Shown here piece by piece: positions 24,378 through 26,336 of a DNA stretch of 46,331 bases. The stretch is from IMG/VR virus record IMGVR_UViG_2877948078_000002, one strand, 5' to 3'. The position numbers and the translations under genes are program-made. The notes below the pieces were generated by a model, which did not search any database, was not told where the DNA came from, and saw only the letters and a program-made list of their open reading frames with translations. Source of the stretch: a virus (lineage: Duplodnaviria > Heunggongvirae > Uroviricota > Caudoviricetes). Each line of letters opens with the position of its first letter. Position 1 is the first letter of the stretch.

Positions 24378-26336
24378 ATGCAGGCTGGTCACCAGAGTGA
24401 CGCGGATATTTATATTTATGACGAGATTGGTTTCTGGGGTGTTACAGCGAAGCAGTTTATCAGTGATCTGAATGCACTGGGCGATATCACCCACATTAAT
24501 CTCCATATTAATTCACCGGGTGGCGATGTCTTTGAAGGCATCGCCATTTTTAATGCGCTGAAAACACATGGTGCGTCCATTACCGTTTATGTCGACGGTG
24601 TGGCGGCGTCAATGGCGTCGGTCATTGCGATGGTGGGAAACCCGGTCATTATGCCGGAAAACACCTTCATGATGATTCATAAACCATTTGGCTTTACGGG
24701 CGGTGATGCGGAGGACATGCGCACCTATGCCGACCTGCTCGATAAAGTTGAGGCGGTTCTGTTACCCGCTTATGCACAGAAAACCGGGAAAACCACCGAT
24801 GAAATTGCTGCCATGCTGGCGGATGAGACCTGGATGTCCGGTGCCGAATGTCTGGCACATGGATTTGCTGATCAGGTAACGCCAGCCGTTAAGGCAATGG
24901 CATGTATTCAGTCAAAACGTACAGAGGAATTTAAAAAGATGCCGGAATCCATTCGAAACATGATTACTCCGCCACGCAACAGTGCTCCACGCGTACAGGA
25001 TAATGAACCTGAAGCCTCCCGGACGCCAGTGCAGGCAGCAGCACCCGTGGTGGATGAAAACAGCATCCGTGCGCAGGTACTGGCAGAGCAAAAAGCGCGT
25101 GTAAACGGTATTAATGATCTGTTTGCCATGTTTGGCGGGCGTTATCAGACGCTGCAGGCTCAGTGTCTTGCCGATCCTGAATGTTCGCTGGAGCAGGCCC
25201 GCGAAAAGCTGTTGAACGAGATGGGGCGCGAGTCCACGCCATCCAATAAAAATACCCCGGCTCATATTTATGCCGGTAACGGTAATTTTGTGGGGGACGG
25301 GATCCGCCAGGCGCTGATGGCGCGTGCCGGATTTGAAAAAACCGAACGTGATAATGTCTACAACGGGATGACCCTGCGTGAATATGCCCGTATGTCACTG
25401 ACTGAACGGGGTATTGGGGTTTCCAGTTATAACCCGATGCAGATGGTCGGTGCGGCGTTCACACACAGTACGTCTGACTTCGGTAATATTCTGCTGGATG
25501 TTGCGAACAAAGCCATTCTGCAGGGCTGGGAAGATGCCCCTGAAACCTATGAACAGTGGACGCGGAAAGGTCAGTTGTCTGATTTTAAAATTGCCCATCG
25601 TGTGGGTATGGGTGGCTTCAGTGCTCTGCGTCAGGTGCGTGAAGGGGCGGAATATAAATACGTCACCACCGGAGATAAACAGGCCACTATTGCACTGGCG
25701 ACCTATGGCGAGCTGTTCAGTATCACCCGTCAGGCCATTATCAATGATGATCTGAATATGCTGACCGATGTCCCGATGAAACTGGGCCGTGCGGCGAAAT
25801 CCACTATTGCCGATCTGGTTTATGCCATTCTGACGTCTAACCCGAAAATCTCCACAGATAATGTAAGTCTGTTCGATAAAGCGAAACATGCAAACGTACT
25901 GGAGAGCGCTGCAATGGACGTGGCATCGCTGGATAAAGCCCGCCAGTTGATGCGCGTTCAGAAAGAGGGGGAGCGTCATCTGAATATTCGTCCTGCGTTC
26001 GTACTGGTACCGACGGCGATGGAGTCTGTTGCTAACCAGGTCATTCGCTCCTCAAGTGTCAAGGGGGCTGACATTAACGCCGGTATTATTAACCCGGTGA
26101 AAGATTTTGCGACCGTTATTGCAGAGCCTCGTCTTGATGATAACAGCCAGACCACCTTCTACCTGGCTGCGTCAAAAGGCTCCGATACGATTGAAGTGGC
26201 TTATCTCAACGGTGTGGATACGCCATATATTGATCAGATGGAGGGCTTCAGTGTGGATGGCGTGACAACGAAAGTGCGTATTGACGCCGGTGTCGCGCCA
26301 GTTGATCACCGCGGTCTGGTGAAATGTACGGCGTAA
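24378..26336 (+). CDS. Fused head maturation protease (ClpP-like) - scaffold - major capsid protein precursor (Gifsy-2-type head gene)
   Basis: N-terminal ClpP-like motif INSPGGDVFEGIAIFNALK…VDGVAASMASVIAMVG, Ala/Pro-rich middle, about 300-aa C-terminal capsid-like domain in one about 650-aa frame; terminator follows. Confidence 0.8.
   Translation: MQAGHQSDADIYIYDEIGFWGVTAKQFISDLNALGDITHINLHINSPGGDVFEGIAIFNALKTHGASITVYVDGVAASMASVIAMVGNPVIMPENTFMMIHKPFGFTGGDAEDMRTYADLLDKVEAVLLPAYAQKTGKTTDEIAAMLADETWMSGAECLAHGFADQVTPAVKAMACIQSKRTEEFKKMPESIRNMITPPRNSAPRVQDNEPEASRTPVQAAAPVVDENSIRAQVLAEQKARVNGINDLFAMFGGRYQTLQAQCLADPECSLEQAREKLLNEMGRESTPSNKNTPAHIYAGNGNFVGDGIRQALMARAGFEKTERDNVYNGMTLREYARMSLTERGIGVSSYNPMQMVGAAFTHSTSDFGNILLDVANKAILQGWEDAPETYEQWTRKGQLSDFKIAHRVGMGGFSALRQVREGAEYKYVTTGDKQATIALATYGELFSITRQAIINDDLNMLTDVPMKLGRAAKSTIADLVYAILTSNPKISTDNVSLFDKAKHANVLESAAMDVASLDKARQLMRVQKEGERHLNIRPAFVLVPTAMESVANQVIRSSSVKGADINAGIINPVKDFATVIAEPRLDDNSQTTFYLAASKGSDTIEVAYLNGVDTPYIDQMEGFSVDGVTTKVRIDAGVAPVDHRGLVKCTA

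Follow-up and report, generated by a model that had tools for sequence, protein, structure and literature searches.

We analyzed a viral sequence of 46,331 nucleotides (nt) from IMG/VR (record IMGVR_UViG_2877948078_000002, hereafter the window) and focused on one long gene on its + strand, at positions 24309 to 26336. We identify it with high confidence as the head gene of a lambdoid prophage of the Gifsy-2/mEp460 type; its single product of 675 amino acids (aa) joins a protease, a linker and helical segment resembling a scaffold, and a capsid domain with an HK97 fold. An earlier reading of the bare sequence (the original prediction) had proposed such a fusion, with a different start. The parts of the gene are:

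24309..26336, + strand: protease/scaffold/major capsid fusion gene in its best-supported extent, 675 aa, 73.6 kDa, with a ClpP-like prohead protease
24297..24303, + strand: perfect Shine-Dalgarno (SD) sequence AAGGAGG, 5 nt before GTG 24309, kept in phages 1720a-02, mEp213, and Kp4865-4
24378..24380, + strand: ATG taken as the start in the original prediction and in several phage annotations, with a poor SD (-2.2 kcal/mol)
24402..24881, + strand: ClpP-like (MEROPS S14-type) head-maturation protease domain, identified with Pfam, NCBIfam, and an alignment to ClpP structures
24882..25259, + strand: middle segment (putative scaffold and linker), made of three pieces
25260..26333, + strand: major capsid protein domain, HK97 fold, related to Mu gpT (Pfam PF25209 and PF10124), 358 aa and 39.0 kDa if cut here

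One frame for protease, middle segment, and capsid domain

A scan of the window for open reading frames (ORFs) revealed a stop-free frame on the + strand that opens at 24108 and is closed by the TAA codon 26334-26336. Its 742 codons are far above chance expectation at the GC content of this DNA (around 52%). The domains are not interrupted by any stop or frameshift: the translation of 24378-26336 has 652 residues, contains the motif INSPGGDVFEGIAIFNALK, and its sole stop is the terminal one. The protein matches the NCBIfam model NF045540 (scaf_prot_MCP1), which describes a fusion of ClpP-like prohead protease and major capsid protein, with 986.1 bits (E 9.2e-297) for a cut-off of 475. The alignment places aa 9-651 of the protein on positions 2-651 of the 652 in the model (residue ranges of Pfam and NCBIfam matches are given in the numbering of the 652-aa form unless stated). 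The same family name was given to an identical coding sequence (CDS) by the Prokaryotic Genome Annotation Pipeline (PGAP), and PHROG 133 also matches the fusion protein from end to end. NF045541 (scaf_prot_MCP2), the model of another type of prohead protease/capsid fusion, has a homologous scaffold and capsid from around aa 200 (400.7 bits), but the score is under its cut-off of 525 and the protease part is unmatched. The protein of the window is thus of the MCP1 and not of the MCP2 type.

The N-terminal domain was recognized as a ClpP-like serine protease by Pfam (CLP_protease, aa 23-168, E 4.4e-36) and by NCBIfam NF045542 "head maturation protease, ClpP-related" (E 3.3e-64), and full-length AlphaFold modelling gave it a predicted local distance difference test score (pLDDT) of around 80. 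In the alignment to ClpP structures, catalytic positions are taken by the Ser in AASM and by the His in MIHxP. The catalytic Ser lies in AASMAS (GVAASMAS; Ser101, codon 24609-24611) and the catalytic His in MIHKP (codon 24678-24680). We measured residue conservation with 111 diverse fused representatives, and found the Ser in 84 and the His in 102 of 112 sequences.

The middle segment follows the protease domain with an invariant junction motif, SKRxEEFxxMP. Its linker, at around 24960-25052, varies in length and is rich in Pro and Ala (MITPPRNSAPRVQDNEPEASRTPVQAAAPVVDEN, 6 P and 6 A per 41 residues). Three predicted helices come next, at around 25056-25223 (residues 250-305 of the 675-aa form, AlphaFold pLDDT 67-82), and the last part, again of variable length among relatives, ends right before a conserved AHIYAGNGN. 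This last variable stretch is likely the zone of maturation cleavage. We obtained no family or fold match for the middle segment, whose putative role as a scaffold is suggested by the published work on Gifsy-2 and by the family name.

The C-terminal domain matches Pfam Phage_capsid_4 (PF25209, aa 354-649, E 2.1e-54) and, more weakly, Mu-like_gpT. Taken as a single sequence, it had only weak matches among PDB sequences (2e-4). A profile built from eight diverse C-terminal domains and compared with solved structures retrieved capsids of the Mu-GpT type (8rkc, 4.8e-8; 9jod, 1e-5). The full-length AlphaFold run, which relied on a shallow alignment of 19 sequences, was confident for the protease and the three middle helices and left the capsid part unusable (mean pLDDT 45). 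With the product of 25260-26333 and 49 diverse sequences, AlphaFold produced a model with a pLDDT of 87.6 and a predicted template modelling score of 0.83. Foldseek found 355 matches to this model in the PDB at E<=1e-3. The top matches all have HK97-fold shells, and the 50 matches listed consist of encapsulins, HK97-fold phage capsids (including HK97 Head II 2ft1, T5, D3, and Adjutor), and related nanocages. Because of the profile matches, the AlphaFold model, and the Foldseek matches, we assign the HK97 fold to the C-terminal domain. The order of parts in the original prediction, with a ClpP-like domain at the N-terminus, an Ala/Pro-rich segment, and a capsid-like domain at the C-terminus of one uninterrupted frame, is therefore the one we recover.

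Start codon and alternative readings of the gene

The original prediction had the right frame, but its start at ATG 24378 (around 650 aa) is less well supported than GTG 24309, 69 nt upstream, which is most likely the start of the gene. This assignment follows from several observations. The energy of the SD duplex is -11.6 kcal/mol for GTG 24309 and -2.2 for ATG 24378. The layout of SD and GTG is common to 1720a-02, mEp213, and Kp4865-4, and starts upstream are also found in MD8 and Gifsy-2. The residue equivalent to 24378 is not a Met in Gifsy-2, Fels-1, and MD8, but an Ile, and upstream of this position there is a conserved (S/T)W(F/Y) motif. In every relative, the tblastn alignment of the 675-aa form sets in at residue 1 or 18, upstream of ATG 24378. 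Finally, PGAP places the start at the position equivalent to 24309, and the identical CDS is annotated in Escherichia coli strain 104. Hence, ATG 24378 is probably an internal codon (Met24). From GTG 24309, the fusion gene shares 56 nt with the 3' end of the portal gene, in another frame. In several phages, the annotated CDS begins at the ATG equivalent to 24378, 23 codons after the better-supported GTG.

The gene is widespread. It is 98.6-99.9% identical in nucleotides, over its whole length, to genes of vB_EcoS-569R4, Ayreon, mEp460, HannyBb, phi458, cdtI, and Tritos (no less than 99% for mEp460, cdtI, Ayreon, and Tritos), and around 77% identical to those of a set of Shiga toxin-converting phages. 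The copies in mEp460, cdtI, Ayreon, Tritos, phi458, and HannyBb are the same gene and differ in annotation only. Across phage records, the names given to the gene include 'head-tail preconnector protease C', 'Nu3', 'putative protease', 'protease/scaffold protein', 'head maturation protease', 'major head protein', and 'terminase protein'. Among 5426 complete genomes of E. coli, 2125 (around 40%) have the gene, annotated as a fusion protein. Full-length fused homologues occur in Fels-1, in Gifsy-2, and in phages of Klebsiella, Providencia, and many of Pseudomonas (including MD8 and F10). In a library of 1.84 billion representatives, the scaffold-capsid part has matches at E<=1e-3 in 10,617 representatives of clusters at 50% identity. 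The top matches are mostly of 620-790 aa and the match begins at residues 190-300, meaning that they are fused.

These data bear on the possibility that the long frame arose by accident or decay, as a non-functional fusion of two genes through a lost stop or a frameshift in a cryptic prophage. In favor of this, the window occupies the site of a cryptic prophage, Qin, and frameshifted copies of the gene are known in other genomes, one of them at the locus that we call L012. However, the fused frame is present in plaque-forming phages, in Gifsy-2 and Fels-1, in MD8 and F10 of Pseudomonas, and in phages of Providencia and Klebsiella, there are thousands of fused cluster representatives and a curated NCBIfam model of the fusion, and the mutant form at L012 is the split one, which results from a 1-nt deletion. 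We thus consider this explanation effectively refuted. Since near-identical genes are found in the isolated phages mEp460, cdtI, Ayreon, Tritos, and phi458, the fusion is functional and not a decayed gene.

Another possibility is that the ClpP-like domain is catalytically dead and acts solely as an internal scaffold, in which case maturation would depend on a host protease or on no protease at all. The third residue of the triad aligns poorly, as the Asp of ClpP is placed on E173, beside D172, and its identity is ambiguous. Yet, the Ser of AASMAS and the His of MIHKP are kept in the window and in diverse relatives, and the domain has the above-mentioned strong match to head maturation proteases, which makes a dead enzyme highly improbable. 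The ambiguous triad residue also limits our own reading of the gene as an active protease fused to scaffold and capsid, as do three other points: full-length AlphaFold is poor beyond the protease, the scaffold-like nature of the middle segment is deduced from three predicted helices and from position, and both the cleavage and its site are proposed by analogy with Gifsy-2. In this analysis, we found no evidence contradicting this reading.

In the clade of enterobacterial and Pseudomonas phages, the gene could also hide a second one. An additional start at the internal ATG 24939 (Met211 of the 675-aa form) would produce a scaffold-capsid protein of 465 aa and 50.7 kDa devoid of protease, like Nu3 inside C in lambda, such that only a minority of subunits would carry the protease and the protease-to-capsid ratio would be set accordingly. 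The internal Met does not vary among 8 enterobacterial and Pseudomonas phages with just 57-77% identity, each of these 8 phages has a GAGGA or CAGGAG motif 10-11 nt before the ATG, the first Glu uses the rarer GAG codon in 7 of 7 sequences, and the matches to NCBIfam MCP2 and PHROG 4523 begin close to this position (aa 187-200 of the 652-aa form), which marks it as a module boundary. However, with the 111 more diverse fused representatives, the column is mostly occupied by Ile, Ala, or Val, with a Met in just 9 of 112 sequences; the next residue is the conserved one, a Pro in 101. This conservation of the Pro points to a structural or cleavage motif, not to a start codon. The SD-like motif before 24939 is weak (-6 kcal/mol), has a long spacing, and coincides with the codons of the conserved Glu-Glu-Phe. 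Furthermore, all five stand-alone scaffold-capsid candidates of 440-480 aa that we checked were artefacts of a 1-nt frameshift or a contig edge. By estimate, about 415 copies of an internal domain of 35 kDa would fit into a T=7 shell, and with that number fewer proteases per shell are not required. Altogether, we regard a nested gene as unlikely and retain a single 675-aa product.

The rejected stand-alone homologues deserve a few details. P0129 is the part of a fused gene that follows a 1-nt deletion, while P0135, P0151, P0167, and P0200 begin within around 100 nt of a contig end, and the frame of P0135 is open right to that end. At L012 (2940-3003; draft genome GCA_000755365.1, contig BBMQ01000056.1), the fusion gene is split by the deletion of a single base in a Pro codon, and the gene calls are a 201-aa 'Clp protease' and a 443-aa 'capsid protein', the latter from the conserved internal Met. 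This locus shows that frameshifts can mimic unfused genes.

Comparison with Gifsy-2, HK97, and lambda

The closest well-known system is the tripartite capsid gene of Gifsy-2 (STM1034.3n, YP_001700678), which has the same order of ClpP-like protease, middle segment, and capsid in a single frame. The two proteins are 70% identical and 84% similar in 663 aligned positions that cover aa 1-651 and all three parts. Their neighborhoods are also alike, with a lambda-family portal upstream whose gene overlaps the start of the fusion, and homologues of the cement protein, the PF13856 protein, gpZ, gpU, and gpV downstream. Gifsy-2 also has a hairpin and T7 behind the gene. In contrast, the two proteins have N-terminal leaders before the protease and Pro/Ala linkers of different length and sequence, an insertion of 7 residues stands directly before the capsid domain of Gifsy-2, and the host of Gifsy-2 is Salmonella and not E. 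coli. The Gifsy-2 gene was reportedly characterized by Effantin et al. in 2010 (Virology 402:355), and the release of its capsid protein by proteolysis is reported in texts that cite this work.

By analogy with Gifsy-2, and in line with the family name, a T=7 procapsid would form from the precursor on the lambda-family portal, and the N-terminal part of around 35 kDa would be turned inward. The tethered protease domains would then cut away protease and scaffold, an autoprocessing expected to leave a mature capsid protein of around 39 kDa. The shell would expand upon DNA packaging and be stabilized by trimers of the cement protein encoded downstream. Gifsy-2 is listed among the phages whose 3-fold axes carry a trimeric cement protein (PMC8538268), and the head proteins of mEp213 are described as similar to those of Gifsy-2.

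The comparison with HK97 reveals a related solution. In gp5 of HK97, the scaffold (delta domain) is likewise built into the N-terminal part of an HK97-fold capsid protein and is cut off by a phage protease after assembly. That protease, gp4, is encoded by a separate gene and belongs to a different fold family. The protease of the window, unlike that of HK97, is ClpP-like and covalently attached. Also, the HK97 shell is stabilized by cross-linking, whereas the module of the window encodes a cement protein instead.

Lambda shares with the window a homologous terminase (gpA family), a portal of the same family, and the use of a cement protein. Its head genes are otherwise organized differently: the S49 peptidase gene C with the nested nu3 comes first, followed by D and by a separate E, whereas the window has one fused gene, and the decoration gene precedes the capsid gene in lambda but follows it in the window. 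We found no nucleotide match of the window to the head region of lambda (lambda positions 4418-7160). In the NCBIfam search of the fusion protein, the SppA/S49-type model TIGR00706 remained below threshold (22.3 bits for a cut-off of 155). The protease being ClpP-like and a separate capsid gene being absent, this is not a lambda-type head module. The claim of a Gifsy-2-type module in place of the C, Nu3, and E genes of lambda is thus upheld, both by the full-length identity to Gifsy-2 and by membership in NF045540.

Fused protease-scaffold-capsid genes are already known: NCBIfam has a curated model for them, the prototype in Gifsy-2 was studied structurally, and near-identical copies occur in isolated phages. 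As a discovery, the fusion is therefore of little weight, and its practical value concerns annotation. Many phage records name the gene only 'protease', 'Nu3', or 'preconnector protease C', and so seem to lack a capsid gene. A study on capsid prediction failed to recover the HK97-fold capsid protein of Gifsy-2, which shows that the fusion can confuse automated pipelines.

Neighbouring genes, hairpins, and prophage context

The fusion gene is part of a morphogenesis block, and the succession of portal, fusion, and cement genes is kept in distant relatives. The elements around it are:

20012-20539: DUF1441 protein, in the position of the small terminase
20548-22647: large terminase of the gpA family
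22638-22856: 72-aa protein
22856..24364, + strand: lambda-family portal gene, directly upstream of the fusion gene (PF05136, 7e-81)
26360..26379, + strand: hairpin resembling an intrinsic terminator, GGCCC-GTAA-GGGCT (GGCCCGTAAGGGCT), then T7, from pattern scan and conservation
26391..26409, + strand: second GC-rich hairpin, CAGCCCC-TGAAC-GGGGCTG, directly before the SD of the cement gene
26423..26746, + strand: head cement/decoration gene (Phage_cement_2 / DUF2190), directly downstream of the fusion gene (PF09956, 1.3e-20)
26739-27014: PF13856 "Gifsy-2" protein
27026-27604: gpZ homologue
27589-28002: gpU homologue
28008-28757: gpV-like tube protein with a Big_2 domain

The original prediction had noted a terminator behind the gene, and the first hairpin with its T7 corresponds to it. 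Its core, GCCC-N4-GGGC-T7, is invariant in 7 diverse relatives although the 3' ends of their coding sequences diverged, and the annotators of mEp213 label the equivalent hairpin as a rho-independent terminator. The second hairpin shows compensatory changes in 4 of its 7 pairs among 7 phage sequences, and may stabilize the mRNA or control translation. When we folded the 67 nt after the stop codon, the energy alone was not significant (z -1.5). Hence, the support for the hairpins comes from conservation. Another terminator-like hairpin, GCCCCGG-TTAT-CCGGGGC followed by T6 (28778-28795, + strand), is found directly after the gene of the major tail protein and is stronger than the one behind the capsid gene.

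We then compared the window with the genome of E. coli K-12 MG1655. Three regions match: 1-1179 corresponds to intQ (99.4% identity), 10681-19002 to the block from hokD to ynfO (98.4%), and 42259-46331 to tfaQ-pinQ-ydfK-ynfT-ydfJ (99.0%). With intQ at one end and ydfJ at the other, the window is located at the Qin attachment site. What is missing from K-12 is the region of around 19003-41776, a block of 22.8 kb for terminase, head, and tail morphogenesis, in place of which there are remnants of nohA and stfQ. On these sequence grounds, the window is a full-length prophage of the Qin family at the Qin site of K-12. Since it sits at this attachment site itself, the Qin of K-12 is a deletion remnant of the same phage type as the window and not a separate donor, and the window shows the cryptic Qin before the loss of its 22.8-kb block. 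The integrase of the window is an intact ORF of 431 aa (20-1315, minus strand), whereas intQ of K-12 is a pseudogene.

The comparison with lambda gave a nucleotide identity of 91% for genes M through J (32441-37927) and of 66% for Z/U/V. Relative to Gifsy-2, the identity is 64-71% along 20620-37862, which includes the head block. The original prediction described the prophage as a mosaic with a Qin-like early region, a Gifsy-2-like head, and a lambda-like tail. These three components are indeed present, with 98-99% identity to the K-12 Qin in the early and lysis regions. However, the full arrangement is also carried by E. coli strain 104, and thousands of E. coli genomes have the head gene, as do mEp460 and cdtI. 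The term mosaic thus overstates what is the standard layout of a common and stable phage type.

A few observations concern the early region. An ORF of 495 aa at 8935-10422 (+ strand) lies in an island of 34% GC; it has no Pfam match and only a weak PADLOC match to the candidate defence protein PDC-M28C (4e-5). The cargo of this slot differs between genomes, with a RelA/SpoT-domain protein in E. coli strain 104 and relBE/flxA in K-12, and the slot is possibly a variable hotspot related to defence. Pfam gave no match at E<=1e-3 for two further early ORFs, at 5087-5704 (minus strand, 204 aa) and 7135-8154 (+ strand, 339 aa), and PADLOC gave none for the former. Several RNA families of Rfam scored above their gathering thresholds: the DicF small RNA (4775-4826, minus strand), the sok antitoxin RNA beside hokD (10526-10697, + strand), leaders of the cspA thermoregulator type at 14254-14646 and 17157-17542 (both + strand; cspB and cspI paralogues), and the IS009 RNA (42793-42991, + strand). 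These RNAs are as expected for Qin.

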